This document shows positions 11,639-52,100 of a stretch of 64,000 nt of DNA, one piece after another; the first letter of the stretch is position 1; each line of letters begins with the position of its first letter. This stretch comes from an uncultured virus (IMG/VR IMGVR_UViG_3300008266_000310). Taxonomy: Duplodnaviria > Heunggongvirae > Uroviricota > Caudoviricetes. The stretch lies in IMG/VR virus record IMGVR_UViG_3300008266_000310. One strand, given 5' to 3'. Position numbers and translations under genes: made by a program. The notes beneath the pieces are model-generated. The model had not been told where the DNA came from. It saw only the letters and a list, made by a program, of their open reading frames with translations, and did not search any database.

Positions 11639-14600
11639 TTACATGTAAGTTGCTAGAGCTTTTATACTCCAACCGCTTGTATTTGTGATTATGTTAAGTT
11701 GTGCTTCAGCCGAAACAATAGTAACCGATGCCGAAACAACGAGAGTGTTACCGAGATCGACTGTTGAGAAATCTGTAAATTCTATATTCCCTGCATTCCA
11801 CACTGCCATAACTTCACCTGTTCTTGCATTGGTACTGTTTGTGACTGTGTACTTATAGAATCCTGCTGTGAAAGATCCTGTAGGTTGGGTAAACAAATTA
11901 TTTGTACCTGAGATAGAAGATATTACAGTTGCATAGTCGTTTAATGTAGCATCAAATCTATAGGAGTTTGTTATTACAAAATTACTACCGCTTGAAGCAT
12001 TTACTGCATAAGATGAACTTAATGCGTAAGAAGACGATACAGACAAACCTCCTGTTGCAGCATAACTTGCACTCAATGCTTGAATAGCATAAGAAGCAGT
12101 TCCAAACAACGAACCAGTTAAGTTATTTGCTGTAACTACTCCGTTAAATGTACTAGGTCCGTTTACAGTTAAACTACCTGTTATACTTACAGACCCTGTT
12201 AATATCTGTCTATCTGTTAAACTATTTCCAAAAATATTAGAACCAGAAGAATAGACTATAGAAGAAGTAACGGTTTGTACTACTAATGTTTGAGCAGTTA
12301 ATGTACCTGTTATGAGAGCATTACTTGCTGTTACGTTTTGCCTGACTAGGAAATTATCGGCACTAGAGGCTGTTGCAGCAAATGATGCTGATACAGCATT
12401 TAAAACATAAGATGCTGTAGCTGCTTGATTAGAGCTTACAGCAAAGCTAGCAGATAATGCGTAAGATGAACTTATTGAATTAGAAGAACTCAACGCATAT
12501 GAAGAACTTACTGCTACACTAGAAGAAATACTAAAAGACGAACTTAATGCATAACTAGCAGATGTAGCAAATGAAGCGGATACTGCTTGTAAAACATAAG
12601 AGGCTGTGCTAGCTAGTATTGAACTAGATGCACTAATTGCATAAGAGGAACTTACTGCTTGGCTAGATGAAATTGCAAATGAAGCACTTATTGCATTTAG
12701 TACAAACGACGCTGTTGAAGCGAATGATGCGCTTACTGCGTTTAGAGCATAAGAGGCAGTAGTTGCATTTACAGCGAAAGAGGCAGTAGTTGCATTTACA
12801 GCGAAAGATGCAGATACTGCTGTGAGGGCAAAGGAAGCACTTGTTGCTATAGAAGCAGTTGCAGCATAAGAAGCTGATACCGTATTTATAGCATAGGACG
12901 ATGTAAGAGCAAGAGAGGCAGTAGCTACAGAACCAGTTGTAATATCGTTTATCAATAACGTTCCGGTCTTATCCGGAAATTGAAAAGTTCTTGGTGTATT
13001 GAGACTTAAATTTCCAACATTAAAAGTGAATCTTTTATAGTCTGATGGTAATTGTCCGAAATTAAAAACTAGCTGCGAATTTCCAAAAGCACCTATCTCA
13101 GTATAATCACCGCTGAGGAATGAAAGGGTACTAGACGGTTGCTTAAAGGCTAAGGTGTAATTATTCGACCCTGTACCGTCCAGAACTACGTGATTATTAA
13201 AGGTAGTTTTGTCGGTAAATGTTTTTAACCCGCTAATACTTTGACTTCCTGTAGTGTATACTACATTGGCTATAAAAGAAGCAGTTGCAGCAAACGATGC
13301 ACTTATGGCGTTATCTGCTCTTGATGCTGTTGCTGCATAAGATGAGCTTACTGCAAAGAAGGCATAAGAAGAAGTAAGTGCATTTGAACTACTTAGGGCA
13401 TAGCTAGAAGATACTGCAAAGCTTGCAGTAGTTGCAAAAGATGCAGAAGTAGCGGTACTTGCGTTACCTGCTATAGATGCACTAATTGTAGAAGTATTAA
13501 TCCACTTTCCTGCGGTAGTACTGTATGCAAGTGGTTGTAAGTTAGTAGGACCAGAGATAGATACATCAGATAGGCCTGCTAATGTCTGTGTTACTACAGA
13601 CCCGCCACCGCCAGATCCACCTACTTGCCTGAATAAGCCTCCAGGTAGTAATGTAAAATCATTAGCAGATGTAAAGACACCTGTACCGTTTATAACAATA
13701 GCCCCTACATAAACTGCGTTTGCTGCTGTATTAGGAGCTTCTACAAAAGATTCGATGTTTAAGTTTGCAATAGCATCTGCTTCAGTAGTGTATATGTTAT
13801 TGCCATAGTAAACAATAATTGCTTTAGCTACGCTATTAGGAAACCAGAATACTCTCTGTATCGACCAGTTGCCGGCTCCTACATTAGTGAGAGTACCGTT
13901 ATTAGAATAATTTTGAGGATCAATTGCTCCAAACCCAGCACCTGCATTGGTTAAATATACCCAGCTAGACCCTGTTTGATAATACCTGTATATTTTAGAG
14001 GTGTTAGTTCCAGGGTCAATAGCGTACGATGGATTGTTTGGATCTACAGTGTAGTTAGATCCTGGAGCATAAGCTGTACCGCTTCCTATCACTAAACTAC
14101 CTGTAGAAGATCCGCTAGGTGCTAAGGTAAAACCGGACAGTTTTAACGGTCCGAATGCTCTATTAAATATATTTTGTTGTTGTTCAAAACCATATGCTGT
14201 AGATGGTTGTGTTTTAACACCGTTAATTGTAGATCCGTTTTGAAATAATACAACACCTACATTAATTTCTGTATCAAATTGTCCAGCAGCATATGGTGTA
14301 CCCTGTTGGTAAATATTACCAGTTGAATCAATAGATACAAACGCTTGTTGATATGATGCAGTAAGCGGTGCAATACTAGCCGATAAATTACCCCAGTTTA
14401 GATATTGAATAGTGGGGTATGGGTTATCATTTAAACTTGCATTTAAGTTAACAATGATACCACTACCGCTTGATATTTGATAAACAGTAGATGATTGAGT
14501 TGTAATTAAACCACCGTTTAATAAACCAGTATATAAATTACCTTCTAACCAACGTAAACGAGTTACGTTATTATATCCTTTACTATTTTGAGAAAAATAT

Positions 14601-17600
14601 AAGTCTTGAGTAGATCCACTTACATAGATGTAAGAGGCAGATATTGAAGTATCTATATTTGTTGTTACAGGTAAGAACCTGGTATAGCCTGTTTGGTTTA
14701 CGTCGCCAAATATTTGAATAGTCGGAGTTGTGGCGCCTTGAGAACCGGAGATAATTAAACTACCCGATAAGGACGTATTACCTATTAAGCTGTTATTACC
14801 TACCTGTACTGTAGATCCTGTTATGTTTAAGCTCCCGGTTAGTACAGTAATACCGATTAATGTATTTGAACCTGTAGTAAATAAACTACCTGTTACTGTT
14901 TGATTTCCTCTAAATACATTTGACCCGGTTGTTGCAAATACCCCGGAACCTGTACCGTCAAGTAGTCCTGCATTTAATGCATAGGAAGCTGTTACAGTAT
15001 TTGAAGAGCTAATAGCATAAGAGCTTGACAGAGCATTAGATGCTGATATTGCATACGATGCACTTACTGCTGTTGTTGCATGAGATGCTGTTACTGCATT
15101 CAAGGCCCAGCTAGCTGTACCAAATAAACTACCTGTTAAGTTATTAGCGGTTACGCTACCGTTAAATATAGAAGGTCCGTTAACAGTCAAGCTACCTGTA
15201 ATACTTACTGAACCTGTAAACTGTTGCGTGTTACTTAACTGATTACCGAATATGTTAGAACCAGACGAGTATATTACACTTGACGATATCGTTTGTACTA
15301 CTAAGGTCTGTGCAGTAAGAGTATTCGATATTAAAGCATTGCTTGCAGTAATGTTACCTCTAACTAAAAAGTTATCAGCACTTGATGCTGTTAATGCATG
15401 AGAAGCAGTTAATGCATACGATGCACTTATAGAACTTACTGAGAAGCTTGATGTCTCAGAATAAGAAGCACTCAATGCATACGATGCACTTACTGCGTTA
15501 CTACTACTTACTGCATAAGATGAACTTAGAGCATAGCTAGATGAAATACTAAAAGATGCACTTGTAGAAGTTAACGAATACGATGCCGTAACGGCATTAG
15601 ACGAGCTTACTGAATAACTTGATGATATTGAGTTGGAGCTACTTATAGCATACGATGAACTTACTGAATTACTGCTAGTTAGTGCGTAACTTGATGATAT
15701 TGCATTTGAACTACTAATTGCATACGATGCACTGACGGCAGTACTGGAAGATAATGCATAACTCGAACTTATTGCATTAGAAGCACTCAGAGCATACGAT
15801 GCACTTATTGCAAAAGATGCAGTGTCTGGTAGGTTGATAGCAAAGCTAGCTGTCAATGCATAAGAAGAGCTTACCGAATTAAAGGCAAATGACGCTGTTT
15901 GTGAATACGAAGCAGATACGGCATAAGAAGAGCTTAATGAGGTAGGTGCATGAGAGGCAGAAACAGCCCAACTTGCCGTACCGTACAGACTTCCTGTTAT
16001 TCCTTGCTTAACTGTTAAACTATCACTGATCTCCAATGAACCTGTGATATTATGCTCATTATTTGGATTAAGTTGAAATTTATTGTCTATGAGAACATCA
16101 GGACCCCCTACAAAAAATCCTAAATGCTTATTAAGTGAAGCGTTACCAATATGAAACTCTGAACCTGTATTGAAAACATATGCATCATTAGGTCCACCGA
16201 GAAAACCGCTGTAGTTTTCACTGTTAATACCCATATTGACATAGTTACCATTCTCATCTCCGTTGTTAGCTGTTGCTACTACGTCAGAAGAAGCATTAGT
16301 ACCTTGATTAGTATTTTGAATATTAAGCTGTAAGTAGTTATTGAGATTACCCTTACCGCTTATTACATTAAAAGAGGAAGTACTTGGCTGCCAAACATAC
16401 AACGCTTCGGGAGCATCGCTTGTATTTCCAGTTTGGTTTATTATAACACTAAACGATCCAGACTGAAATATGCTACTCGTAGCAATTGTATTCGATGTAT
16501 CAAACAAAGGTATGTAAGTAGGTACACCTTTGATATTAGCTACAGAACCACTAAAAGATCCAGTGAAGAATCCGGAGAATTGTCCGGAGAAAGACCCTGT
16601 ATTGTAAGATTGACTAAAGGCTATAAAGCTAGAACTTAACTGGGAGATACTACTGCTAAAAGAGGCTGAGGCTATGTAATAAGAGGTAGTGAAGGCAGTG
16701 TAGCTAGAACTCAACTGCGAGATACTAGCACTAAACGAAGCTGAATCTGTATAGTAAGAAGAAGTAAAAGCAGTAAAGCTAGAAGTCAAGGTGTAGGCAG
16801 GAGCTACTGAGGCTGTATAGGCATTTACGGCGTTTTGTGCCCAGCTTGCTGTACCATATAAAGATCCTGTATTGTAGGATTGACTAAAGGCTAAAAAAGA
16901 TGAGCTTAGCTCGGAGATACTAGCACTAAAAGAAGCTGAGTTTATATAATAAGAAGCAGTAAAGGCTGTGAAGCTGGAAGTTAGAGTGTAGGCAGGAGCT
17001 GTTGAAGCTGTAAGAGCGTTTATAGCATTACTAGCCCAGCTTGCTGTACCGAAGAGGGATCCGGTCAAAGCACCTATAGTCGTACTTCCGTTAAAAGTCG
17101 CCGGACCGTTTACAGTAAGGGAACCGGTAATATTAACCGATCCTGTAAACTGCTGTACATCTGTTAATTCATCTCCAAATATATTAGATCCTGAACTGTA
17201 TATTACTGAAGAACTAATAGTTTGGACTACTAGAGTCTGCGCTGTTATAGTTCCTTGAATAAGAGCGTTACTGGCTGTTATATTACTACTGAATGTTGCG
17301 CTAGACCCTGTTAGTAATCCTCTTACTTGAAATTGATCGGCAGAAGAAGCTGTTTCAGCTGTCTCGGCATGTGATGCTGAAATTGCATAAGAAGCTGTTG
17401 TGGAAGAGGGTGCGTGTGAGGCAGAAACAGCGTAGGAAGCGCTAATAGCGAAAGAGCTACTTACTGCATATGATCCACTAGTAGCGAAAGAGCTACTTAA
17501 GGAGTAAGAGGCTGATTGGGCTTGTTGGGCAAAGATAGCATACGAAGCAGTTCCTGCCATAGCGGCATAACTAGCATAAGAGGCACTTACAACACTACCG

Positions 17601-17764
17601 CTTGTAGAAGCTAATTCAATGATATTCTGAAAAGTTCCTGTATCCTGCTTTAAAAATACCTTACCGTCGTAAGTGTTTATCGCTAATTCACCGAGATCTA
17701 GTTGCGATAGTTCAGGTATTTTTCCAGGTACAGAACTGCGTTTCAGTTCTATTCTAACTGCCAT
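11639..17764 (-). CDS. 2041-aa Ser/Ala/Thr-rich tail-fibre-like protein
   Basis: N-terminus IELKRSSVPGKIP...GELAINTYDGKVFLK resembles common fibre anchor (Mtd_N-like) domains. Many S/T-A-S-Y/F-A repeats and three copies of the TAQTLVVQT...FTGSV.ITGSLTVNGP module. Confidence 0.75.
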   Translation of the reverse strand: MAVRIELKRSSVPGKIPELSQLDLGELAINTYDGKVFLKQDTGTFQNIIELASTSGSVVSASYASYAAMAGTASYAIFAQQAQSASYSLSSSFATSGSYAVSSSFAISASYAVSASHAPSSTTASYAISASHAETAETASSADQFQVRGLLTGSSATFSSNITASNALIQGTITAQTLVVQTISSSVIYSSGSNIFGDELTDVQQFTGSVNITGSLTVNGPATFNGSTTIGALTGSLFGTASWASNAINALTASTAPAYTLTSSFTAFTASYYINSASFSASISELSSSFLAFSQSYNTGSLYGTASWAQNAVNAYTASVAPAYTLTSSFTAFTSSYYTDSASFSASISQLSSSYTAFTTSYYIASASFSSSISQLSSSFIAFSQSYNTGSFSGQFSGFFTGSFSGSVANIKGVPTYIPLFDTSNTIATSSIFQSGSFSVIINQTGNTSDAPEALYVWQPSTSSFNVISGKGNLNNYLQLNIQNTNQGTNASSDVVATANNGDENGNYVNMGINSENYSGFLGGPNDAYVFNTGSEFHIGNASLNKHLGFFVGGPDVLIDNKFQLNPNNEHNITGSLEISDSLTVKQGITGSLYGTASWAVSASHAPTSLSSSYAVSASYSQTASFAFNSVSSSYALTASFAINLPDTASFAISASYALSASNAISSSYALSSSTAVSASYAISSSNAISSSYALTSSNSVSSSYAISSSNSISSSYSVSSSNAVTASYSLTSTSASFSISSSYALSSSYAVSSSNAVSASYALSASYSETSSFSVSSISASYALTASHALTASSADNFLVRGNITASNALISNTLTAQTLVVQTISSSVIYSSGSNIFGNQLSNTQQFTGSVSITGSLTVNGPSIFNGSVTANNLTGSLFGTASWALNAVTASHATTAVSASYAISASNALSSSYAISSSNTVTASYALNAGLLDGTGSGVFATTGSNVFRGNQTVTGSLFTTGSNTLIGITVLTGSLNITGSTVQVGNNSLIGNTSLSGSLIISGSQGATTPTIQIFGDVNQTGYTRFLPVTTNIDTSISASYIYVSGSTQDLYFSQNSKGYNNVTRLRWLEGNLYTGLLNGGLITTQSSTVYQISSGSGIIVNLNASLNDNPYPTIQYLNWGNLSASIAPLTASYQQAFVSIDSTGNIYQQGTPYAAGQFDTEINVGVVLFQNGSTINGVKTQPSTAYGFEQQQNIFNRAFGPLKLSGFTLAPSGSSTGSLVIGSGTAYAPGSNYTVDPNNPSYAIDPGTNTSKIYRYYQTGSSWVYLTNAGAGFGAIDPQNYSNNGTLTNVGAGNWSIQRVFWFPNSVAKAIIVYYGNNIYTTEADAIANLNIESFVEAPNTAANAVYVGAIVINGTGVFTSANDFTLLPGGLFRQVGGSGGGGSVVTQTLAGLSDVSISGPTNLQPLAYSTTAGKWINTSTISASIAGNASTATSASFATTASFAVSSSYALSSSNALTSSYAFFAVSSSYAATASRADNAISASFAATASFIANVVYTTGSQSISGLKTFTDKTTFNNHVVLDGTGSNNYTLAFKQPSSTLSFLSGDYTEIGAFGNSQLVFNFGQLPSDYKRFTFNVGNLSLNTPRTFQFPDKTGTLLINDITTGSVATASLALTSSYAINTVSASYAATASIATSASFALTAVSASFAVNATTASFAVNATTASYALNAVSASFASTASFVLNAISASFAISSSQAVSSSYAISASSSILASTASYVLQAVSASFATSASYALSSSFSISSSVAVSSSYALSSSNSISSSYALSASFAVSSNQAATASYVLNAVSASFAATASSADNFLVRQNVTASNALITGTLTAQTLVVQTVTSSIVYSSGSNIFGNSLTDRQILTGSVSITGSLTVNGPSTFNGVVTANNLTGSLFGTASYAIQALSASYAATGGLSVSSSYALSSSYAVNASSGSNFVITNSYRFDATLNDYATVISSISGTNNLFTQPTGSFTAGFYKYTVTNSTNARTGEVMAVWNAGNIEFTDFSTVDLGNTLVVSASVTIVSAEAQLNIITNTSGWSIKALATYM
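12751..12804. repeat. Exact 27-bp tandem duplication in the 2041-aa fibre
   Basis: aagaggcagtagttgcatttacagcga x2 (encodes a 9-aa unit of the FAVNATTAS repeat). Confidence 0.85.
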
Positions 17765-34367: not shown

Positions 34368-34967
34368 TTACGCTAATAAACTATAATACTCTTTAAAATG
34401 TTTAATTCTATCGGCAAGACCGATCGTACCGCCGTTTACCAGCTTAGTAGCTTTAGTTACTACAACGTCAGTAGCACCTTGATCAGCAACTGCACTAAGC
34501 TTACGGCTATTCCAATACCATGCAGCCGATAACAAAGGATATTTCGTAGCTACGAGGTCTGGATTAGTTAATGTATCCACTCCTGCAGCTTTACCGAAAG
34601 CAGTATAGTTTACTTTTCCAGTTAACTGTATGTATCCACGGCCGCGAAACTTAAATCCCTCCCCTGATGCTTCAGCACCATTACCCATTCTAGAGGCGTA
34701 GACGCGATTAGCAATCTTTTCAGGCTTACGTTGATATTGTTCGGCTAGGGCCGGAGTAGGAAAATATTTTTTAAAAATTCCTTGCAAGCCTTTAGCGCTA
34801 TAATTTAAATTTTCATTTACAACCCTAAATCCGCCTGATTCATGTCCGCACTGTGCTAGGAAATGAGCAAGACGGAGCGGAGTATTGATTTGAAACTTCT
34901 CCATTACTTCTGGAATTTGTGCAATTACAGAATCAGGTACGTGTCCTTTTAGTTTTTCTAAGTTCAT
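34368..34967 (-). CDS. Glycoside hydrolase family 19 (chitinase-like) endolysin
   Basis: LAHFLAQCGHESGGF..ENLNYS, KFRGRGYIQLTGK.NY, PDLV, SAAWYW, VNGG.IGLADR. Confidence 0.92.
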   Translation of the reverse strand: MNLEKLKGHVPDSVIAQIPEVMEKFQINTPLRLAHFLAQCGHESGGFRVVNENLNYSAKGLQGIFKKYFPTPALAEQYQRKPEKIANRVYASRMGNGAEASGEGFKFRGRGYIQLTGKVNYTAFGKAAGVDTLTNPDLVATKYPLLSAAWYWNSRKLSAVADQGATDVVVTKATKLVNGGTIGLADRIKHFKEYYSLLA

Positions 34968-41787: not shown

Positions 41788-42707
41788 AAGTGCATTTTTT
41801 TTAATAACAGCTCCCTGAATGTAAGCTGCTTGGCGGTGTGTAAATATTTTGTCATTTCCTCAAAACCGATCTCTGAAGGATCTTTACTGTTTAGTTCAAT
41901 CAAGTAGACATCTTTACCTAGGTTGAGTAAATCTACAGAATACTTCAGAGCTTCTTTTAGGGCATCGTTATCTAAAGCCAAGTAAACTGTTCGTACATCA
42001 CTCTCTACTAGCTTCATCATAAGAGCTTTAGGAATTGTCTTTCCAAATAGCGGTATTGCGTTTCTTCTCAATGTTATTGCATCAAAAATACCTTCACATA
42101 ACACTACAGGTACTTTCCAATTGATATAATACTCAAACCCTATCAATTCGTTCTTATTACAGGAAGGTGCATTATACTTTCTAGCTGGATCTCTTTCATA
42201 TGATCTAGAAATAAAGTAATTTACACGGCCATTACTGTCATAAGAAGGAATAATTACTGAATTTGCATACCTACCTGTCTCGCAGTACCCGATATTATAC
42301 TTCATAATGTCTTCATCTGTTATACCTCTACTCTTGACGTAGGCTTTAGCTTGTCGGTAACTTAACTTTGTACTGTTTTGTGTAAGAGTTAAAAACTCTT
42401 TCGGCAATTGCACCACCGTGTAACTCTTCTCATCTACATCTCCTTTACCGTCAGGGAAATAACTTCGCATTTCTGACAACTGTGTAGGACTGGCATGTAA
42501 TTTTTTGAGTAAAGAAATTAAATTTCGTCCTTTTGTAGCAGGTTGACAAGTCCAACAATGGTAAAATCCTGTTTTTGGATCTACCTCTAACTTAGGTTTG
42601 TGATGTTTACAGAATGGACAGTGAAAGGCATAGTTACCTTTTGTGGAGGGTTTAGATTTACCTAATAAACTATGTAATAATCCTAGTACGAGTCGTGAAT
42701 TTTCCAT
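41784..42707 (-). CDS. DNA primase (zinc finger + TOPRIM)
   Basis: CPFC...HCWTC, YVKSRGI, LCEGIFDA, LALDND. Confidence 0.9.
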   Translation of the reverse strand: MENSRLVLGLLHSLLGKSKPSTKGNYAFHCPFCKHHKPKLEVDPKTGFYHCWTCQPATKGRNLISLLKKLHASPTQLSEMRSYFPDGKGDVDEKSYTVVQLPKEFLTLTQNSTKLSYRQAKAYVKSRGITDEDIMKYNIGYCETGRYANSVIIPSYDSNGRVNYFISRSYERDPARKYNAPSCNKNELIGFEYYINWKVPVVLCEGIFDAITLRRNAIPLFGKTIPKALMMKLVESDVRTVYLALDNDALKEALKYSVDLLNLGKDVYLIELNSKDPSEIGFEEMTKYLHTAKQLTFRELLLKKMHL

Positions 42708-42740
42708 GTATATCCCTGTTCTACAAGGAATATTAAGTAA

Positions 42741-43208
42741 TTATTCTGAGACTTCCAAGTCTCTTCTAAAAAATTTTGCTAAAACATTGTCATTGTACGA
42801 CTTATCTGAAATAAGTACTTCTTCTACACACTGAAAATGCACCTCCCAGTAAGTAAGCTGCTTTTTATTAAAGCAAAACTTGAGGATTTCTTTACGGAAA
42901 GCTTGAATTCCGTTTTGTTTAATTTCGTCTTGAATAGTCTTGTTAGATCCCCAGTATTCTTGCCAGTTTGACTCTGTAGTTACGAGCTTTTTTGTAGGTT
43001 TTCTACCCGGACCCTGGTGTTCTGCAAGCTCTTTTTTTGTTAGCTTCTTTCTAACGTTCGAATATAGAGATTTTTTACCGATATAAAATTTACCAGTCTT
43101 AATATTCGTAATTTTGTATACAAAACCTAAACATTTTTCTGGAAATTTATCGATATTGTCGTACTCCTTTATAGTTCCTTTCTCGTATATAAACCATTTT
43201 TCAGTCAT
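42741..43208 (-). CDS. GIY-YIG-like protein (Seg-like nuclease fold)
   Basis: GFVYKITNIKTGKFYIGKK, YWGS, FRKEIL, YN. Confidence 0.75.
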   Translation of the reverse strand: MTEKWFIYEKGTIKEYDNIDKFPEKCLGFVYKITNIKTGKFYIGKKSLYSNVRKKLTKKELAEHQGPGRKPTKKLVTTESNWQEYWGSNKTIQDEIKQNGIQAFRKEILKFCFNKKQLTYWEVHFQCVEEVLISDKSYNDNVLAKFFRRDLEVSE

Positions 43209-43226
43209 AGACTTTTAATTATACTT

Positions 43227-43598
43227 TTAGCTATCCCACCTAACAACAAAAGTTATATCTGTATTAGAAGGAATAGGGTACGGAGTAGCTAATTTTCCGA
43301 TAACTAACAATTCGTTAGCTTCGTTATACAAGCCTACAGTCGTAGCATAAGGATGAAAAGAGGATCCTGTTATATTATCTGCAAGAGTACCGTCTACGAT
43401 CTGGCCATTTATAGCTGAGCCGCTTTCTGGCGCATAAAAAGGTAATGCAGATAATCCCGTGATAAGGGTAGTTGCTTTAAATACAGTAGGATTTTGCGAG
43501 TAATTAAAGTCGTTTTCTAAAACTCTACATTTAACCTCATTTACGTAAATCGTGGTTTCAGCTCCTAAAGCTAATTTGTATGGTGCATACGATGGCAT
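43227..43598 (-). CDS. Structural protein corresponding to the C-terminal half of the 47328-48413 family
   Basis: ETTIY...FNYSQNPT...PYATTVGLYNEANELLVIGKLATP...FVVRWD parallels ETIS...YNYSTNPT...TYVTTVGMYNDNSELLAVAKMSKP...IRVKLDW. Start placed at MPSYAP (43598). Confidence 0.7.
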   Translation of the reverse strand: MPSYAPYKLALGAETTIYVNEVKCRVLENDFNYSQNPTVFKATTLITGLSALPFYAPESGSAINGQIVDGTLADNITGSSFHPYATTVGLYNEANELLVIGKLATPYPIPSNTDITFVVRWDS

Positions 43599-43600
43599 AC

Positions 43601-44473
43601 TTATAAATAGTAGAACGGCCAAACATTTTTGTGCAGCCCCCAGTAACTGTGTTCTCTAAACGTATCTTTCCTGTATACGTTATAGTGAGAAGTAAAATGT
43701 TTTCCGTGATTTACGTGTATAGCCGGATGTATACACTCCCACTGTTTCCGTATCAGGGTTTGAGGTTCTATAAGTCCGGCATTTCTAATAAGAGCATTAG
43801 CTAGAATAGATTCACAGTGGTGAATTGCTTCGCTAAATCTCATCGTCATTTGATGAAAAGGCTCATCTCTTTGTCCTAAAGGTTGAAATCCATTAGCATT
43901 AATTCCCATGTAATTCATATTAGTCAATACGCAACCCTCTTCAAATTCAGGAAATTCAAAGTATCCTTCCGGATATAATACGTCATGTTCTAAAAAAGAA
44001 ACATACTTGTAATTACCAATCTCTTTTGCTTGGTATAGCAATTGCATTACCTGTAATAACTGGTTTAAATGACTGCAGGTATGAGTCCAGGCAATAAACT
44101 CAGGAAAAGGATTTTCTGGTTCATGCTGCCACATTGAGGTTAGGATATCGGCCCTACTCTCAGACGCTTTTAGAATGGATTTTAACGAGGCTTTTATTGC
44201 AGGGTATATAGTACTATTATTATTATTTGAGTAGAATATCCCCAGTCTCTCGTGCTTTGATTGAGGGAATACAAAGAGGGTATGCTCCTTAATACTGTGA
44301 TCGGTAATTACTCTTTCGTTTTCTACTATAATATCTAAATACTTAACCACTCCGGGCTGGGTATCGCCAATAATGCTGTTATCAGATCGAACAATAAGTT
44401 TATTTCCATTAACTTTAGACTGTATTTTTTCTGTACAGTCGACTCCTCCGTATGTTGCTTTTAAAATTTTCAT
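43601..44473 (-). CDS. Putative GT-A glycosyltransferase with N-terminal SUEL/galactose-lectin-like domain
   Basis: ILKATYGGVDCT...NSIIGDTQPGVVKYLDI (A-x-YG...GDPxPGxxKYL pattern); YVSFLEHDVLYP DxD-like motif; IHVNHG.HFT. Confidence 0.55.
   Translation of the reverse strand: MKILKATYGGVDCTEKIQSKVNGNKLIVRSDNSIIGDTQPGVVKYLDIIVENERVITDHSIKEHTLFVFPQSKHERLGIFYSNNNNSTIYPAIKASLKSILKASESRADILTSMWQHEPENPFPEFIAWTHTCSHLNQLLQVMQLLYQAKEIGNYKYVSFLEHDVLYPEGYFEFPEFEEGCVLTNMNYMGINANGFQPLGQRDEPFHQMTMRFSEAIHHCESILANALIRNAGLIEPQTLIRKQWECIHPAIHVNHGKHFTSHYNVYRKDTFREHSYWGLHKNVWPFYYL
43602..43609 (-). promoter_or_regulatory. Putative late promoter motif TATTTATA
   Basis: Plus strand tataaata 3 nt upstream of ATG 43598. 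Confidence 0.55.
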
Positions 44474-44992
44474 TTATTTTCTTTTAGCATGCATTATGCC
44501 CATTTGATTAATATCAGTACAGAACCACCCGAACTGATTTATTGCAAAAATTTCAAAGCCAAACTCTTCTAGCTTTTCTGTTAAGATTCTTTTACACTCA
44601 TGATTGTGATACTCTATTGCAACTTCTTCCACACAGGAAAATTGTTCTGAAGTTATGTGTTGCATATGTGCTTCATGTCCTTCGATATCCATCTTAATTA
44701 CTGCTGGTTGATACTCGGACAATACTTCTACAAGACTCTCTACACTTGTAATAGCTTTACATATAAAAATATGGTCTGAATATTTTACTTTTAGTTGTTC
44801 TATCTCGCTGCAAGCTACATCTACTCCTATGACTTTACTAGCTCCTCTATTTAAAAGATATTCAGGAGTTGATTCGTGGGGTTGAAATAACCAACCGCAT
44901 CCTAAATCTAGAACTACCTTGTTTTCTACTTCTTTTAGATCAGACCAATGCTCTAAAGGATTTTCCGAATGTACTACTTTTGTACTAAACAT
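44474..44992 (-). CDS. SAM-dependent methyltransferase, FkbM-like
   Basis: VVLDLGCG, GASKVIGVD, IKMDIEGHE, IEYH, L...GF. Confidence 0.7.
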   Translation of the reverse strand: MFSTKVVHSENPLEHWSDLKEVENKVVLDLGCGWLFQPHESTPEYLLNRGASKVIGVDVACSEIEQLKVKYSDHIFICKAITSVESLVEVLSEYQPAVIKMDIEGHEAHMQHITSEQFSCVEEVAIEYHNHECKRILTEKLEEFGFEIFAINQFGWFCTDINQMGIMHAKRK

Positions 44993-45939
44993 GATTTTTT
45001 AGAGGTTTTAATTATTTCTTTAACGTAGTTATAACCGCAGGTAGTACTTTTAAAATTATCTTGTTCTATATCGTACGGTAACTTTTCCATGTAATTAGCC
45101 TTGTAGAACTGCCTACCACATGAACAAGTAACGCCTGCATTATGAAAAATAGTCGTTTCTTCCCACCGTTCTATGTTATCTGTAGCCCAGCTAAAGTTCA
45201 TCTCTGGTACTACTTTTGTTTCATTTCCGAGTAACCATCCATTCCATAAGACAGCCCACATATCAGCACACCAAATTTGAAGGGGATGATGTGAAGGATC
45301 TTCTTTTACTTTTTGTTCATTTAATTTAGTGATCCAATAAAATAAATCTTCGCAATCTGCTTCAACTTTTTCCCAGAAATTAGCATTTATATTTTTTAAA
45401 ATATACTGAGCTCCTCCTGAATTGGAATTCATTAATTTAGGAATCAAAGGATCAATCTGCACTATTTTACACATTCTAGTATAGACATCCTGTCCTTTAG
45501 ACATAATGTAATCGTAGTTTATATAACTATTCGTATTACTCAAATACCATACACCGTCCTGTATAAATGAATCCCAGTTAGGTTTTTTAGTAAATACAAT
45601 ATCCGAATCGTAGTAAAAGATAGCTTCTTTTTCTAGTTCAGGGTATGCTGTAAAATGCTGTTTAAGTACATTAGGTCGAATAGAAGAAATATAGCGAATT
45701 GGCTGTTGTCTAGTATCTTGATAAAAGAAAAAACGAACATTGTTATAATGATTTGCTAATGCAGTCCATGCTTCTATGTTTTCCGGGGCAGACGTTTTAT
45801 CTTCTGGATTCCAGGCAACTAAAATGTCGATACTATTAGGGTTGATTCCATGCTCTAGAAAATTGTTAATCATTACTTCAACCTGCCAAGCGTAGTATAA
45901 GAGTCTAGGCTGGACGCATACATAACGTAAATTCTTCAT
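44974..45939 (-). CDS. Putative glycosyltransferase resembling peptide O-glycosyltransferases (GT95/GT96-like)
   Basis: Ordered motifs YYAWQ, YISSIRP, YYDSDI (DxD), SGGAQY, FW, WCADMWA, FH. Confidence 0.6.
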   Translation of the reverse strand: MKNLRYVCVQPRLLYYAWQVEVMINNFLEHGINPNSIDILVAWNPEDKTSAPENIEAWTALANHYNNVRFFFYQDTRQQPIRYISSIRPNVLKQHFTAYPELEKEAIFYYDSDIVFTKKPNWDSFIQDGVWYLSNTNSYINYDYIMSKGQDVYTRMCKIVQIDPLIPKLMNSNSGGAQYILKNINANFWEKVEADCEDLFYWITKLNEQKVKEDPSHHPLQIWCADMWAVLWNGWLLGNETKVVPEMNFSWATDNIERWEETTIFHNAGVTCSCGRQFYKANYMEKLPYDIEQDNFKSTTCGYNYVKEIIKTSKKSCLVQK

Positions 45940-45960
45940 AACAGATTATTATTTTACTTA

Positions 45961-47316
45961 TTATAAGGCTGCGCAAGCATCACCGCATGTTGCATAATTT
46001 CCAGAAGATGTATCTAAGACATATCCAGGACCTGTAGGACTAGTTCCTGTGATTTGATATACATGATTAAGATCTGCTGCATCTGGGTAGAATCTACTTG
46101 TAGTTACAGTTTGTCCAGCAGGGAATGCTACTATTAATCCGCTGCTAACCACAGTACAAGTAGAACATTGGTATTTGTCAGCTGTGTAGTGATCATAAAC
46201 TACTGTTGTTGTTGTAGTTGTTGTACTAGTAGTAGTTGTTGTGGTGGGAGTAGTACAGACTGTTATATCTCTTACAACATATCCATTAGTTTCAAAATTT
46301 ACATAATACGGACCAATTTTAAAATATTGCTGGGAAGTATCTGTATAAGCACTAGCTGTTATAGGTACAGTAAGGCATTCATCATAATATAAAGGTGTAC
46401 CATTAGTAAGTGCTAATGATGAAGAATAATATATAGTAGAAGCACTAACTAATAAATTACATGCAGCATCAGCAGAACTAGTTCCAAACATTCTAGGTAA
46501 TCCTGTATCATAATTATAATACATACTCTGTGCATTTTGTGGAGCACAAGTTGTTGTAGTTGTAGTAGTACTAGTAGTAGTTGTTGTTGTTGTTGGTACT
46601 GTTGTCGTGCTTGTAGTAGTACTAGTAGTAGTTGTAGTTGGTACTGTCGTAGTCGTTGTAGTCGTACTAGTAGTCGTAGGTACTGTTGTCGTACTAGTAG
46701 TTGTGCTAGTAGTTGTGGTAGTCGGAGCAGTAGTAGTTGTACTAGTTGTAGAAGTAGTAGTCGTTGTAGATCCGGTAGGACATGGTAGAATATCTAGATA
46801 ATTAGGGTTGGTAAAAATAACCATTCCCTGCGGGTATATAACATTACCTACATGCAGACTTCCAGATACTTTATCTACGAGATTACCGTTACCGTCATCT
46901 ACGATATAGTAAGCAGAAGAAGAAAGTATAAAATTATTCTTAGCTATCTTTTCGCCGAAAACTCCTCTTGGTACTGATAAAATAGTTATACGGGCATTTG
47001 ATTCTGTAGGAAAATACCTATTATCTGAATCTAAAGAACCAGAAGCGGCAGTAGATTGTAAAAAATTATCCGCACTTGAAGCAGAAACTGGAAATGACCC
47101 GGTGAGGTAGTTAGAATAATACAAGTGCCTGATTGACCAGTAGTTCAAAGTTTCTTGCGGAATAGATCCTGTTATAGTCACAGGACCGTTCACCCCATTC
47201 AAAACTTCCATTCCATACTCCGCAAGCGTACTACAATTGTACGACGAAGTGTATATTAGTTTGATCGGAGTAGTAATAACATCAGATGTTTTAAGACTAT
47301 TTGATGATCTACTCAT
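45961..47316 (-). CDS. Virion structural protein with mucin-like Thr/Pro tracts and Cys-containing distal domains
   Basis: N-terminal GEKI...IVDDGNGNL...VGNVIYPQGMVIFT domain; ~75-aa TTTTSTTTSTTTVP tract; second shorter Thr tract; two small Cys-flanked domains. Confidence 0.75.
   Translation of the reverse strand: MSRSSNSLKTSDVITTPIKLIYTSSYNCSTLAEYGMEVLNGVNGPVTITGSIPQETLNYWSIRHLYYSNYLTGSFPVSASSADNFLQSTAASGSLDSDNRYFPTESNARITILSVPRGVFGEKIAKNNFILSSSAYYIVDDGNGNLVDKVSGSLHVGNVIYPQGMVIFTNPNYLDILPCPTGSTTTTTSTTSTTTTAPTTTTTSTTTSTTTVPTTTSTTTTTTTVPTTTTTSTTTSTTTVPTTTTTTTSTTTTTTTCAPQNAQSMYYNYDTGLPRMFGTSSADAACNLLVSASTIYYSSSLALTNGTPLYYDECLTVPITASAYTDTSQQYFKIGPYYVNFETNGYVVRDITVCTTPTTTTTTSTTTTTTTVVYDHYTADKYQCSTCTVVSSGLIVAFPAGQTVTTSRFYPDAADLNHVYQITGTSPTGPGYVLDTSSGNYATCGDACAAL
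46549..46770 (-). repeat. Low-complexity ACN-codon (poly-Thr) tract
   Basis: Plus strand gtagtagttgttgt... runs; translation STTTTTSTTSTTTTAPTTTT... Confidence 0.9.
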
Positions 47317-47327
47317 GAATTATTTTA

Positions 47328-48413
47328 TTACCAGTCTAATTTTACCCTGATTAAAGCTTCTTTTGTAAAGTCTTTTACAAGAGGTTTAGACATTTTAGCT
47401 ACTGCTAAAAGCTCGCTATTATCATTATACATTCCTACAGTTGTGACGTAGGTTTGAGGGCTGTAAATCATAGTCGGGTACAAGACTTCACCAGATCCAG
47501 ATACAAATGTCGGATTGGTAGAGTAGTTGTAGTCGGCGTTACCAATTCTAACAAACACGTAATCGGATGAAATAGTTTCTTGAGAGTTTAACTCAAATTC
47601 ACCGCTACGTGAAATAGCTTGAAAAAGTATAGTGTTATTGGTAGAGGTGTAAGAAGCAGAAGCGTTTAGGGAATAGCTACCTGATCCGTAATTAGCTCTA
47701 TCTAACGGTAATGCAATACCTCCTTGAATAGCTGGCAAAGCGAAGGCGCTAGCATTAAGAAGAATGGTACCGATATCTGGAAGATAAAAACCATAAGAAC
47801 CAGAAGCGGTGTATCCAGGGGCAATCTGACCGGCACTATTTGTAGAAGTAGCTCTACCGTAAGAACCTGATACGAGGTTAAATACCCTACCACAATCCAA
47901 GTAAGTAACAGTAGTAACATCGTTACTATTATCACAGACTGTAATTTCACCTGCAGAACTTGAAAGACTTAAATTAAAAGTACCGGGCATTAAGCTCTCT
48001 TTATACCTGTTTCTATCTACATTTATAGCTAGAATATCTGGAGCATTTGTAGCAAGGCCTCCAAAATTAAAACCTTGAAGAGAACCTGATAGAGCAGGGC
48101 CGTATACAAGGGTTTCGTACTGCCTGTAAGTAGTTAAAGAAGGCGATACACCTGGAACGAGAGGGTTATACCACTGAGATCCGGAACCGTTGATATTACC
48201 GTATGCAATAGCGAATTGTGTAGCAGCTCCTGTGGAATTACTCTGCGTCTGGTAGACATTCAAGTAGAATGCACCCTGAGTAATAGTAGTTGAGGGAATA
48301 GACGAGGCTGTATAAAAAGTTGTTAACGTAGGCTGATTAGCACTCCAAGCCGGAGCTGTAATAGAGTCCGAGCTAATCACAAAATCTGTTGGAGCAAGTC
48401 TTGTAAATGACAT
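47328..48413 (-). CDS. Virion (baseplate/tail-associated) structural protein
   Basis: QFAIAYG, RYKESLMPG, YNYSTNPTF, YVTTVGMYND..ELLAVAK; in the structural cluster. Confidence 0.65.
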   Translation of the reverse strand: MSFTRLAPTDFVISSDSITAPAWSANQPTLTTFYTASSIPSTTITQGAFYLNVYQTQSNSTGAATQFAIAYGNINGSGSQWYNPLVPGVSPSLTTYRQYETLVYGPALSGSLQGFNFGGLATNAPDILAINVDRNRYKESLMPGTFNLSLSSSAGEITVCDNSNDVTTVTYLDCGRVFNLVSGSYGRATSTNSAGQIAPGYTASGSYGFYLPDIGTILLNASAFALPAIQGGIALPLDRANYGSGSYSLNASASYTSTNNTILFQAISRSGEFELNSQETISSDYVFVRIGNADYNYSTNPTFVSGSGEVLYPTMIYSPQTYVTTVGMYNDNSELLAVAKMSKPLVKDFTKEALIRVKLDW

Positions 48414-48417
48414 ATTT

Positions 48418-49083
48418 TTATTGTGTTACTTTTGTTATTTGAACTGGAACGAATAATCTTGCACCAGAGTCGCGTCCTATAACAGTGAGTGTGGTGTAGA
48501 GAGTGCTATTGTTTCCAAAGAGAGTATTCACTGTCGTACCGGTAATATTAATCGAAGTACCTATTACAGTTTTAGATACGTTAGTTCCAATTGTAGTTAC
48601 ACCTGTAGCATTTAGAGCAGTTGCTTGTGGAGTGTTAATACCTACACCATTAAAGGCAGCTGTAGTTCTAACATCTCCAATAGTTGCAACATATCCAGAT
48701 TGTTCGAAAGTTGAAACAGCTCCAAGATAGTTTAATGTTTGAGGCGTAATAGAAATAGAAGCACCTTGCTTAAGAACGATAGTAGTGTATCCAATACTGA
48801 TAACTGGAAGCTTAGCTGTACCTCTCGGTAGAGTAATGAGCTTATACTTCATAATCTCTTGAGATTCAGGGAAAGCTTGTATAATTGGCATATTTTCAAT
48901 AGCTTCTCCGTAAAATGCCGATCCAGAAGGATGGTTTGGATTATAAAGAGTGTAGTCTACTTCATCGTCGGATAAAGAAAACTGTGTGATTTGGAAAGAG
49001 CCATCGTTTTGAGCGAGTAATTGCCTTCCCTTATCGGTTAGAATAGCGTCTACAACAACTGTCGTGTTACTTAAATATGCCAT
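48418..49083 (-). CDS. Virion structural protein
   Basis: VDAILTDKGRQLLA...ITQFSLSDDEVDY N-terminus typical of baseplate/fibre-attachment proteins. Confidence 0.65.
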   Translation of the reverse strand: MAYLSNTTVVVDAILTDKGRQLLAQNDGSFQITQFSLSDDEVDYTLYNPNHPSGSAFYGEAIENMPIIQAFPESQEIMKYKLITLPRGTAKLPVISIGYTTIVLKQGASISITPQTLNYLGAVSTFEQSGYVATIGDVRTTAAFNGVGINTPQATALNATGVTTIGTNVSKTVIGTSINITGTTVNTLFGNNSTLYTTLTVIGRDSGARLFVPVQITKVTQ

Positions 49084-49103
49084 GTTTTTACTGTTTTTCT
49101 TCT

Positions 49104-49111
49104 AATAAATA
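49104..49111 (-). promoter_or_regulatory. Putative late promoter motif TATTTATT
   Basis: Plus strand aataaata upstream of ATG 49083. Confidence 0.55.
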
Positions 49112-49117
49112 GGAAGT

Positions 49118-52100
49118 CTATCCAAAAGTTCCTCCGTTTATTGTATTAATAGGCGGATCTGCTTGAGTAGATAGTAGCTGAGATTGTACAGCAGCTTGAA
49201 GAGTGTTTATATTGTTTGTTACTTCGGGGGTAATTGTATCTGGAATTAAAAATCCGTAGGAGGTTTGTCCTGGATTCTTATTAAAAGTTAATATAACGTT
49301 TTGTTCGTCTTTATACCTTCTTAACAGTAAGAAATTAGTAATTAAACTTGGATTTAATCTCCAGTTTTCAATAACCTGCGGTACTGCAGTAATAACTAAT
49401 TTACTTGTCGATGAATTAATACTTCCCTGTAGTACATCTAACTCTTGAGTTAATCCGCTAAAATCAGACATTACTATCTTATCTCCGGCTTGTGGGATAA
49501 ACGTAACGTTTATATCTCCATACTGTGTGTATAGGCTACTTGTATAAATTATAGAAGCAGATATAAAAGCCGGAACAAACTGGTATCCGTAATACTGACT
49601 TAAGTTACTACTAAAAGTGATAGTACTCTCTAGGTCGCTAGTATCTTGTACACTCTCAATATAGTTACCTAAAGAAGATGTTGCGTACGGGTAACCTCCT
49701 TGTCCAATGGAAATAGTTCCTGCGGAGAGAGAATTATTAGTAGTTCCTATAGCAATAGAAGAAGTAAAGTTAGAGGTAGACATTCCGTCTTGTCTAAACT
49801 TGAATACAACTTTATCGCTAGGACCTAGATTAACAGGCGGGGTTGTATAACTTATTACCTGCTGCGAAGAAGATACTCCGCTTGAAAACGTACTACTACC
49901 TCCAGAAGTTGGAAAGTCGTTCAGGACTGTCGGGTATGTTGTATTATAAAAGTTAAAGTTACTTGAAATATCCAAACTACTACCGATTACAAGGTACTCT
50001 TGACGATAACCTCCTCCTTCGTACCACTCAAAGATACTAGAAGAGATCCAGGAAGCAGTAGATCCTATTGTGTTAGAGAATATACCGTTTACGTATAGAT
50101 CAAAAGGACCGCTATTAATTAAATCGGCTCCGGTCTGTGAGGGTAGGCTGTCTGGATTAGCAGGGATACTACTTTCGTAAATAGATCCTGTTGTAATTGA
50201 AGCAGGAGTAAAGCTAGAAGTGTATTGCACTGTCTGCAAGGTTCCTATCAAACTTGTTCCATTTAAATAGGCACCGAAAGAATATGATCCGCTAGATACA
50301 TCGGCGGATGAGGCTAGGCTTTTGAACTGTATATTAACTCCTAAATCTACGGTAAAAGTTTTCTGACCTGCCTGCGAGGCTGTATAGCTTGGGTATACAC
50401 CGGCTGTACCTGGGGAGAATTCTGTACTAGCTGGGTTTTCTGTGTTAAAGATATTAAAAATATCTCCTGACCTTAAAACTGTATTATCTAATACAACCGG
50501 ATAGTCAACTACGTTGGAACCGCTTATTCTTCCGCTACCTATATTATTAAGTCCGGTAAAAGAAACTACTGAAACATCACCTGTATACTCAAAGTATAGT
50601 CTTGTATCTGCTCCTATAAGTCCAGTAGATCCTGTTGAAAAATATAATTGAGGTGTATAATTATACCCACTGTTGTAGATAGACTTTACTCCGTCTGTTC
50701 CTACTTGATTCGAATACTTTTTGTTATCGAACTGTTTAATAGTTCCGACAGTTCCTGCCTTGAAAATATTCTGTACATCAGCCCAGTTTCTATTATTTTG
50801 GTTTAGTTCAAATAAACCTCCAGAGACATCGGCAAAATAAGCTAAAGTAGCATTTACTTTCCCTGGTAGGAAGGAACTAGTAACTACTTGTGTAAATAAG
50901 CCGAGCTTATTTGAGTAATAGTTAATAACTGGTTCCCCTCCGTAAGAAATGTCTCCTGAATACATTATACTTTGAGAAGTGTATTGGTTGTAAACGAGAC
51001 CAGAAAGATACGATCCGCTATACCTTGGTATTATATAAGGACGGGAAATATGGTTAAAATCTTGATACTGTGCGTACTGTGAGTAAGGTTGTTGGCTCTG
51101 ATTTACTGGACCTACAACAAGACTTTGACTTAAAGACTGAGTTATTAGTCCGTAGTTAGTAGGAGCAAGTTGACTATAGTTGTAATCTAAATCTAAGACT
51201 CTTTGAGAAATAACTGATCCTGTAATATTTTGGAATATAGGACTTAATGAATAAGTTAAAAATAAAATATTCTGACCTCCATGCTGTGAAGGAGGTACAG
51301 AAGAAGTCCACGGGAAGTAGTAACTTGAAACATCTGTCTGTGGAAAATAGTTGTTACTAGCATCAATATAACTACCGCTAAACTCTCCTGTATATTTCTG
51401 AACGTTATCAGAAGAACTCATATACACAGTGCCTGGTGATCCAGATAAAGGGAATGAGTAATTACTGTATTGAACAGGTACGGCTTCTACATAACCGGTA
51501 TTTCCTACAACTGCACCTCCGTCGGACCCTGTTACAGTCAGTAAGTAATAATCAGCATCGAAACTACTAGTTGTTCCAGTTGGTTCTTTTCTCGGATACT
51601 TATTCCTTTCAAGCATATGAGACTTAATCACGATACCGGTACTAGGACTTGTCCTAGCTGGTACCCAGTCTTTCAGCATCTTAAATAGAGAGTTATTATA
51701 GTACTTTATAACTCTAATAAAATCCCAAACATTATACCTACTTGTATATTCTGCGTTAAAATAAGTATTAGCAGTATTTACGAGAGGTATGTAAGAGCTT
51801 GAATACTGTAAATTAGGAGCTCCAATAAGCTGCATAATGTTAAAATATCCGGGCTGTGTAGAAGAGGTTACATAACCTGATGAAGTTATACTTGCATTAA
51901 TTGAATCGGCTGGAGAGAATGCTATTTCAACATCTCCAGAAGTTTTCATTAAGGTATAATCGTAATACTGAGAAGTAACATAAGGGTCTAGCAAGCTACT
52001 TGAAAGCTCTAAAACGCTTCCTGTTATGATTCTAGTATTTGATATTTCTTGAATACCCGGAACCTCAAGGTAGTTGTATCCGCCGTATTCATGAACCTGT

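Follow-up and report, generated by a model that had tools for sequence, protein, structure and literature searches.

We analysed a 64,000-nucleotide stretch of DNA from an uncultured tailed virus (IMG/VR record IMGVR_UViG_3300008266_000310), referred to here as the window, with a focus on a minus-strand gene at 44974..45939 that encodes a 321-aa glycosyltransferase (GT) of an unnamed family. The window represents the structural gene region of a T4-like myovirus, with matches to baseplate wedge, portal, major head and terminase families of the PHROG database. It also encodes a prohead protease of family S77, PhoH, a SegE-like GIY-YIG endonuclease and a primase, and its major head protein is closest to that of the Flavobacterium phage vB_FspM_immuto (immuto; 54.8% identity). 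The GT gene lies at the end of the baseplate and fibre genes, behind a gene for a 451-aa protein with long runs of threonine and serine (Thr/Ser, or S/T). The features that concern the enzyme and its candidate acceptor are as follows:

44974..45939, minus strand: 321-aa GT-A glycosyltransferase of an unnamed family (PHROG 4417), encoded by an ATG-started open reading frame (ORF); proposed Thr/Ser O-glycosyltransferase
45601..45609, minus strand: DxD codons D111-S112-D113 of the GT, downstream of strand 106-110 and conserved in four family alignments (A1, A2, A4 and A6, described below)
45961..47316, minus strand: 451-aa candidate acceptor, built in this order of an N-terminal domain, a stalk of poly-Thr/Ser, a domain that contains Cys, another stalk and a C-terminal domain
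46549..46770, minus strand: first Thr/Ser run, residues 183-256 of the 451-aa protein (74 residues, 89% S/T)
46198..46254, minus strand: second Thr/Ser run, residues 355-373 of the 451-aa protein (19 residues, 84% S/T)

The 451-aa protein consists of 24% Thr and 12% Ser, it is the sole protein in the window with such runs, and its N-terminal ~180 residues are kept in 19 related loci. A preliminary description of the GT, made from the letters alone, had placed a plausible acceptor beside the enzyme, and this ORF, directly upstream, bears that out.

The glycosyltransferase, its conserved core and its fold

Six motifs had been picked out in the preliminary description, namely YYAWQ (residues 15-19), YISSIRP (83-89), YYDSDI (109-114), SGGAQ (174-178), FW (188-189) and WCADMWAV (223-230), with positions assigned here by script. 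All six are present, and they form the most conserved blocks of a very large family. Conservation was assessed in alignments A1 (46 relatives with 33-78% identity), A2 (104 sequences), A4 (79) and A6 (118). In A1, W18, Y83, D113, Y139, G176, Q178, M227, F249, H266 and K280 are invariant, and Q19, D111, W189, Q221, W223, W228, W232, N267 and G269 are at least 90% conserved; this core is likewise kept in the other three alignments. D113 varies in none of the four; D111 does not vary in two of them and is kept in at least 90% of the sequences of the remaining two. A seventh block, absent from the initial list, consists of FHNAGV (265-270) followed by K280: H266 does not vary in A1 or A6 and is kept in at least 90% of the sequences of A2 and A4, G269 is found in every sequence of A6 and in at least 90% of those of A1, A2 and A4, and K280 is invariant throughout. 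Across the four alignments, the D111/D113 pair, H266, K280 and Q178 are invariant or nearly so.

The ESM Atlas record and several database gene calls of the 321-aa GT begin at residue 23. Because residues 4-22, including the near-invariant W18 and Q19, are conserved, the longer ORF starting at residue 1 is supported and the shorter gene calls look truncated. The maximum Kyte-Doolittle mean over 19 residues is 0.89, a value that corresponds to no membrane segment; since it has no hydrophobic segment, the enzyme should be soluble.

Homologs of this protein are numerous. At E <= 0.001, 3350 family proteins were retrieved among 3615 candidates, and clustering at 50% reduced them to 860 representatives. 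Viral contigs contributed at least 595 relatives (595/600 pattern matches) and contigs of prokaryotic genomes 134 of 138 pattern matches. Cultured-phage records with a match numbered 77, every one below 60% identity, and by host name they fall to Lactobacillus (23), Enterococcus (21), Staphylococcus (11), Lactococcus (8), the plain name Bacteriophage (6), Clostridium (3), Lacticaseibacillus (2), Chryseobacterium (1), Arcanobacterium (1) and Levilactobacillus (1). The window GT matches PHROG 4417, a family listed as being of unknown function, with an E-value of 2.8e-63. It returned no Pfam family at E <= 1, no NCBIfam match and no relative by sequence in the PDB, and a PDB search with the A1 profile found no GT; the TALE-repeat matches produced by that profile search were rejected as a low-complexity artefact of the SGGAQ segment.

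An AlphaFold2 model built with A1 (pLDDT 96.9, pTM 0.93) folds into a single GT-A domain with a Rossmann-like alpha/beta/alpha arrangement, in which D111 and D113 of the DxD directly follow strand 106-110, at the end of the fourth strand. Foldseek comparison with solved structures placed UGGT first (E 4.4e-8), followed by WbbM, Skp1 galactosyltransferase and glycogenin; the best solved-structure matches are thus GT8 and GT24 enzymes, and the model has a GT8-type three-dimensional structure. In a comparison with predicted viral structures, two family members came first, and GT8 proteins of giant viruses were the next-best matches. The Chlorovirus PBCV-1 protein A64R, a capsid-glycosylating GT-A domain (PDB 2p6w), was a weaker match than the GT8 enzymes; PBCV-1 is a eukaryotic virus, and the acceptor chemistry of A64R differs.

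Likeness to GT8 and GT24 is confined to the fold. Against a comparison set of glycogenin, LgtC, Skp1 alpha-galactosyltransferase, GlyE of the pneumococcal serine-rich-repeat pathway and the UGGT catalytic domain, no match is seen at the level of sequence, the structural alignments have 7-13% identity, and no GT8 family is among the Pfam families listed for the 46, 104, 79 and 118 relatives of A1, A2, A4 and A6. Unlike these enzymes, the window GT carries a long helical insert at residues 186-236, and its family has conserved blocks of its own, WQ, SSIRP and QxWCADMW. Because the enzymes that top the fold-match lists are retaining transferases, a retaining mechanism is our best guess for this GT, drawn from the modelled GT8/GT24-like fold. 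The protein is a real, well-conserved glycosyltransferase of an uncharacterised family.

Thr/Ser runs as candidate acceptors in phage loci

The association between the GT gene and Thr/Ser runs was quantified in 82 loci with a GT ORF, out of a set of 83 (80 viral contigs and three cultured phages). Same-strand ORFs of at least 70 aa were scored by the highest Ser+Thr fraction in any 30-aa window and counted as positive at 70% or more. The ORF directly upstream of the GT was positive in 49 of the 77 loci that have an upstream ORF, or in 30 of 47 when the same test was made per cluster at 80% GT identity. The three ORFs downstream of the GT were positive in 0/77 loci, and the background, comprising all other same-strand ORFs, was positive in 8/522, demonstrating a statistical coupling of the GT to an upstream Thr/Ser run. 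The upstream partner differs in kind among phages: it is a small ‘major tail protein’ in Lactobacillus phage Semele, and two Thr-rich proteins serve as partners in Chryseobacterium phage MA9V-3. In phage phiFL1A, the upstream partner is the major tail protein gp50; the GT, gp51, lies in the head-tail module and has the tail chaperones on its other side. In the window and in phiFL1A, the GT gene stands in a structural module, adjoining a Ser/Thr-rich segment of a particle protein.

Cultured phages with and without the GT exhibit a matching phyletic coupling. The A1 profile found the GT in 4/4 known positives (E <= 7e-83) and in none of six negatives (phiJL-1, ATCC8014, Javan47, Javan505, SPP1 and immuto). 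In GT-positive phiFL1A, the major tail protein gp50, which is of the SPP1 gp17.1 type found in 76 records, ends in ~25 Thr/Ser residues, and the major head protein gp45 (L081:1960-2955) ends in a Thr-Lys-Pro-rich tail. In GT-positive R3.3, a Lacticaseibacillus phage of the genus Coetzeevirus, the head and tail proteins both end in Thr runs, and the GT gene comes after the major head gene instead of the tail gene (L177:267-2130). Since head and tail proteins are both Thr-tailed in phiFL1A and R3.3, one enzyme may serve several acceptors. The homologous proteins of the GT-negative phages phiJL-1 and ATCC8014, which belong to the genus of R3.3, stop where the R3.3 tails begin, and those of GT-negative Javan47, Javan505 and SPP1 are without such Thr tails. 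GT and Ser/Thr tags thus co-vary in the phages compared, a small sample.

This comparative evidence points to a peptide or protein acceptor. Because the family sits directly behind threonine-run particle proteins in many phages, it probably sugar-coats the virus particle, and the enzyme very probably acts in the O-glycosylation of Thr/Ser-rich phage particle proteins. For the enzyme itself, gene context and conservation make it fairly likely that it initiates O-glycosylation of Thr/Ser runs on the phage’s own particle proteins.

In the window, the GT and the 451-aa protein belong to an operon that runs on the minus strand through the 451-aa protein, the GT, a 172-aa protein, a 290-aa protein and a small ORF. 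The 451-aa and GT genes are separated by a 21-nt gap, the GT and 172-aa genes overlap by 19 nt, the 172-aa and 290-aa genes abut with 0 nt between them, and the 290-aa gene overlaps the small ORF. The three remaining members are:

44474..44992, minus strand: 172-aa class-I methyltransferase-like protein, with sub-threshold matches and VLDLGCG in its sequence
43601..44473, minus strand: 290-aa second glycosyltransferase, with an N-terminal beta domain (1-70) and a GT2-like GT-A domain (73-290)
43227..43622, minus strand: small ORF, 131 aa from a TTG at 43622 or, more likely, 123 aa from an ATG at 43598; similar to the C-terminal part of immuto gp105

The matches of the 172-aa protein are weak and all sub-threshold (Methyltransf_25, E 0.033; FkbM family TIGR01444, E 0.0014), and its homologs come after the GT in 9 related loci. 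In the 290-aa protein, E162-H163-D164 are invariant. From the gene order and the composition of the 451-aa protein, we read this cassette as two transferases and a probable methyltransferase placed behind a mucin-like protein.

A mechanism can be proposed on this basis. The soluble GT would work in the cytoplasm of the infected cell during infection, bind a nucleotide sugar, probably a UDP-sugar, through a metal held by the DxD, and move the first sugar onto Thr/Ser hydroxyls of extended runs in newly made particle proteins. In the window, the acceptor would be the runs of the 451-aa protein encoded directly upstream; the GT2-like 290-aa protein would then extend the glycan and the 172-aa protein would methylate it, so that the product would be a mucin-like stalk on a protein of the baseplate or fibre region. 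Once modified, the runs would form stalks or tails on the particle surface that are stiff, hydrophilic and resistant to proteases.

The presence of a second GT in the cassette raises the alternative that the enzyme acts in the same virion-glycosylation pathway as an extender of a glycan started by the 290-aa protein or by a host enzyme. Its closest solved folds fit this alternative, as they include the glycan-extending GT8 enzymes LgtC, LARGE1 and GlyE. It is the GT family, however, that is the constant partner of Thr/Ser runs, homologs of the 290-aa protein being present in only 24/82 loci; phiFL1A has no other annotated GT; and, in most of the fused homologs listed, the family domain comes first and the other GT domains behind it. 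We regard the extender role as unlikely. That the Thr/Ser run is the acceptor and that this GT, not the 290-aa protein, starts the glycan is what we infer, the role of the family as starter being deduced mainly from the lack of another annotated GT in phiFL1A.

A target other than protein, such as modified bases of phage DNA, host surface polysaccharide or teichoic acid, was also weighed. DNA glucosylation and serotype conversion are the best-known roles of phage GTs, as described in PMC12619734 and PMC12801897, and the cassette borders genes of the replication region, namely those for the primase, a YqaJ exonuclease and the SegE-like endonuclease. Several observations speak against such a target: in siphophages, the GT gene is placed within the head-tail module, with the major tail protein on one side and the tail chaperones on the other; the GT is without a membrane segment; and no hydroxymethylase or TET-like gene was found within the 64-kb window. 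A non-protein target would also leave the coupling to Thr/Ser runs and the cultured-phage comparison unexplained, and we consider it improbable.

Several points weigh against initiation of O-glycosylation on Thr/Ser runs. A Thr/Ser-rich ORF is missing directly upstream in 28/77 phage loci, and among bacterial-genome loci only 9/73 have one; the thresholds (70% S/T, 30-aa window, ORFs of at least 70 aa) were of our own choice. The tail-protein comparison is small (2 positive versus 5 negative phages), and the head-protein comparison within Coetzeevirus comprises 1 positive versus 2 negative. A GT8-like fold alone does not fix the acceptor, and many GT8 enzymes act on glycans. H266 and K280 are putative counterparts of the metal-binding His and the phosphate-binding Lys of GT8. 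The lack of another annotated glycosyltransferase in phiFL1A (38.8 kb) refers to the annotation of that record only. The window holds two GTs, either of which may start the glycan. Throughout, the case is built from sequence, from models and from the neighbourhood of the genes.

A few mycobacteriophages are known to have glycosylated particles. According to PMC12619734, which cites Freeman et al. 2023 (Cell Host Microbe) on mycobacteriophage virion glycosylation, phage-encoded GTs modify C-terminal parts of capsid and tail-tube subunits. phiFL1A and R3.3 have the same layout, with tags on head and tail proteins. The family analysed here is unnamed, whereas the mycobacteriophage enzymes belong to annotated GT families; its hosts are Bacteroidota and Firmicutes, and in the window the candidate acceptor is a stalk internal to a fibre-region protein. 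A literature search, with subscription journals largely outside its reach, returned nothing on a threonine-rich major tail protein in phage and nothing on phage poly-threonine glycosylation.

If the O-glycosylation of Thr/Ser runs holds true, this abundant family would mark a widespread and easily recognised way in which phages sugar-coat their particles, and it would account for the stalks and tails of poly-threonine that many phage structural proteins carry. It would bear on the stability, adsorption and immune recognition of therapy candidates among Enterococcus, Staphylococcus and Lactobacillus phages, and it would provide a soluble enzyme and a simple peptide tag for glyco-engineering. 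Several cultured phages make the idea directly testable.

Possible relation to plant HPAT and SGT1

The preliminary description had gone further and assigned the enzyme to the plant and algal peptide O-glycosyltransferases, represented by hydroxyproline O-arabinosyltransferase (HPAT; PF23452, GT95) and the related SGT1 (peptidyl-serine alpha-galactosyltransferase, GT96). Of that assignment, the GT-A glycosyltransferase with its DxD and the Thr/Ser-rich acceptor alongside it held up, whereas homology to GT95 or GT96 was not established. The proposed likeness consists of the transfer of a first sugar onto a peptide hydroxyl of repetitive, extended segments, of the motif order as given in the preliminary description, and of the weak colinear profile matches given below. 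Plant HPAT-type enzymes are Golgi membrane proteins. The window GT, unlike them, is predicted to be soluble and is without a membrane anchor, and its predicted acceptor consists of Thr/Ser runs, not hydroxyproline.

Profile searches with hidden Markov models (HMMs) gave sub-threshold results. The window GT had no PF23452 match at E <= 1, and among its relatives sub-threshold matches to this family were found in 1/46 (A1), 3/104 (A2) and 2/118 (A6), with none listed for the 79 of A4. Overall, at least 5 of ~302 distinct proteins matched, with a best E-value of 0.0012 and scores of up to 14.8 bits among those listed; none of the ~302 family members scanned reached the gathering cut-off of 23.9 bits. 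Three of the matches lie in one register: P0140 aligns residues 9-114 with profile positions 9-115, P0256 residues 63-112 with 64-114, and P0252 residues 217-267 with 189-242. P0140 and P0256 cover the part from WQ to DxD and P0252, as read from alignment A3, the QxWxxDMW part; none spans the whole domain. Because the HPAT hypothesis had been named in advance, library-wide E-values overstate the search space, and by our own arithmetic 0.0012/24,736 multiplied by 302 proteins gives ~1.5e-5. Against kinship, spurious families recur at a similar level, as NMT_C does in 8/118 relatives (best E 0.0085).

A language-model search of the ESM Atlas gave the strongest pointer to HPAT. PF23452 is present on 22 of the 30 named clusters that lie nearest, and DUF7164 on 6; the PF23452 matches have scores of 0.95-0.96, with 198-203 of 256 features shared, and in the two clusters shown only 10% and 58% of the members carry PF23452. 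By language-model features, PF23452 is the nearest named family. The Atlas also weakens the premise of the preliminary description that these families are mainly eukaryotic, as the members of one cluster with PF23452 on 58% of them are 86% bacterial.

Further searches returned no labelled relative. A word-index search with the three HPAT-matching relatives (A3) returned 120 close relatives, none of them labelled PF23452. A PF23452 search of 886 records, comprising the nearest virus record, 40 GT-bearing viral records, 41 bacterial genomes with a homolog, 3 further genomes and 401 genomes from each of the phyla of G078 and G483, gave none over the cut-off, a result that is uninformative because 14 control genomes were likewise blank. 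In the 41 bacterial genomes, 6 weak PF23452 matches lie elsewhere and have stops inside. The literature search, limited as before, returned nothing that links hydroxyproline O-arabinosyltransferase to bacteriophage. In the fold comparison, the best PDB matches are GT8 and GT24 enzymes, and no GT95 or GT96 entry is among the matches.

Taken together, the language-model neighbours and the five sub-threshold HMM matches hint at a plant-type kinship, which is plausible; we put true kinship to the GT95/GT96 clade at slightly better than an even chance. A narrower alternative is that the enzyme is a true plant or algal GT95/GT96 member that is HPAT-like in action, working on hydroxyproline or using an arabinofuranose donor. 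The same two lines of evidence, PF23452 as the nearest named family by language-model features (22/30 named matches) and the five weak HMM matches, the three placed ones of which are colinear, can be cited for it. Yet no family member reaches the PF23452 cut-off, Pfam scans of the window contain no prolyl hydroxylase, and the adjacent tracts are Thr/Ser with sparse Pro, and we hold HPAT-like action to be very improbable.

Fused homologs in Bacteroidota and further features of the window

In a number of homologs the family domain is part of a longer protein. A scan of 28 longer representatives showed a second GT domain in 9 (GT2, GT6, GT7C, GT25 or Gly_transf_sug), a methyltransferase domain in one and a radical-SAM/SPASM domain in one, and one further relative is fused to a GT29 sialyltransferase domain; the family domain is N-terminal in most of the fusions listed. 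Among 80 loci in prokaryotic genomes, 31 are single-domain, mostly on phage-like contigs, and 49 are fused, the fused proteins being at least 440 aa long and found in Chitinophaga, Pedobacter, Sphingobacterium, Mucilaginibacter and their relatives.

The neighbours of five fused loci (L096, L116, L117, L124 and L138) were scanned against Pfam. LanC-like and radical-SAM genes adjoin L096; LanB N and C domains, HlyD and a C39-ABC exporter adjoin L117; a VKOR-thioredoxin-C39 protein, AhpC/thioredoxin and a C39-ABC exporter adjoin L124; and a GT2 adjoins L138. At L116, the Pfam scan of neighbours showed no hallmark of RiPPs (peptides made on ribosomes and modified after translation) or of export; an amidase and a GntR-type regulator are present. 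With the neighbour proteins of the scanned loci used as BLAST queries, at least one hallmark (LanC-like, LanB, radical-SAM, C39-ABC exporter or VKOR-thioredoxin) was found within 4 kb in 30/49 fused versus 1/31 single-domain loci. Small ORFs with a double-glycine leader occur within 4 kb in 22/49 fused versus 0/31 single-domain loci, giving 26 peptides, of which 12 have at least 30% Ser/Thr in the first 20 core residues and 18 have six Cys. Bacteriocin- or RiPP-like clusters are exemplified by L096, L117, L124 (L124:2452-2724), L125 (L125:102-380), L145, L150 (L150:2522-2812) and others among L084-L163.

The fused Bacteroidota clusters look like loci of glycosylated bacteriocin biosynthesis, as judged from a correlation of gene content. 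Known glycocin enzymes are of the GT2 family and come from Firmicutes. In glycocin systems of the SunS/ThgS type, described for example in PMC12457901, the GT lies beside a double-glycine-leader precursor, a C39-ABC exporter and thiol-disulfide proteins. The fused homologs resemble these systems, adjoining the same three kinds of gene; they differ in that the first domain is from an unnamed family, the hosts are Bacteroidota and the product is a predicted one. This bacteriocin-like context, a line of evidence separate from the phage data, favours a peptide as the acceptor of the family. The clusters may encode an undescribed class of glycosylated bacteriocins, and, if the reading is true, they point to a new group of such peptides; a literature search covering titles and the starts of abstracts of the papers listed, again with subscription journals largely outside, contained no description of such glycocin clusters in Bacteroidetes.

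The phage and bacterial observations can be combined with the plant comparison into one scheme. The unnamed family would be the viral and bacterial branch of the plant GT95/GT96 peptide O-glycosyltransferases; its soluble members would place the first sugar directly on Thr/Ser runs and build a mucin-like coat on heads, tails and fibres of Bacteroidota and Firmicutes phages, and members recruited by Bacteroidota and fused to a second GT would make undescribed glycosylated, disulfide-rich bacteriocins. As a whole, this scheme is tentative, and we would place it clearly below an even chance.

The cassette of the window interrupts the homolog of a Flavobacterium phage gene. Immuto gp105 (357 aa; L171:7018-8091) is similar to the front part of the 451-aa protein (E 3e-8 and 6e-6), and its residues 257-356 match the small ORF at 43227..43622 with 41% identity (E 4e-26). 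The gp105 homolog is split in the window: its front heads the 451-aa protein and its last ~100 residues are the small ORF behind the cassette. Because this homolog is split around it, the cassette lies within a gene of the baseplate module. A 361-aa ORF at 47328..48413 has similarity to the small ORF in its residues 272-344, and relatives of the small ORF align from residue 9 of that ORF on. Between the cassette and the primase gene, at 42741-43208 on the minus strand, lies the gene of the SegE-like GIY-YIG homing endonuclease (Pfam E 3e-25), which could bear on the mobility of the cassette. A promoter and terminator scan of 42600-49300 gave fewer sites than in shuffled sequence and was uninformative on operon boundaries.

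Other minus-strand genes of the window were recorded. A 2041-aa ORF at 11639-17764 contains Ser-rich repeats of the type SSYALTSSNSVSSSYAISS, with 65% S/T in 20 residues, and has no family match; it is possibly a fibre and perhaps another acceptor. Four consecutive paralogous genes at 3310-11366 (789, 320, 531 and 859 aa) have multiple matches to PHROGs 23837, 6002 and 4636, which are repeat-rich and named ‘virion structural protein / tail spike’. A 199-aa protein at 34368-34967 contains a domain of glycoside hydrolase family 19 (chitinase class I; E 1e-10) and is probably the endolysin.

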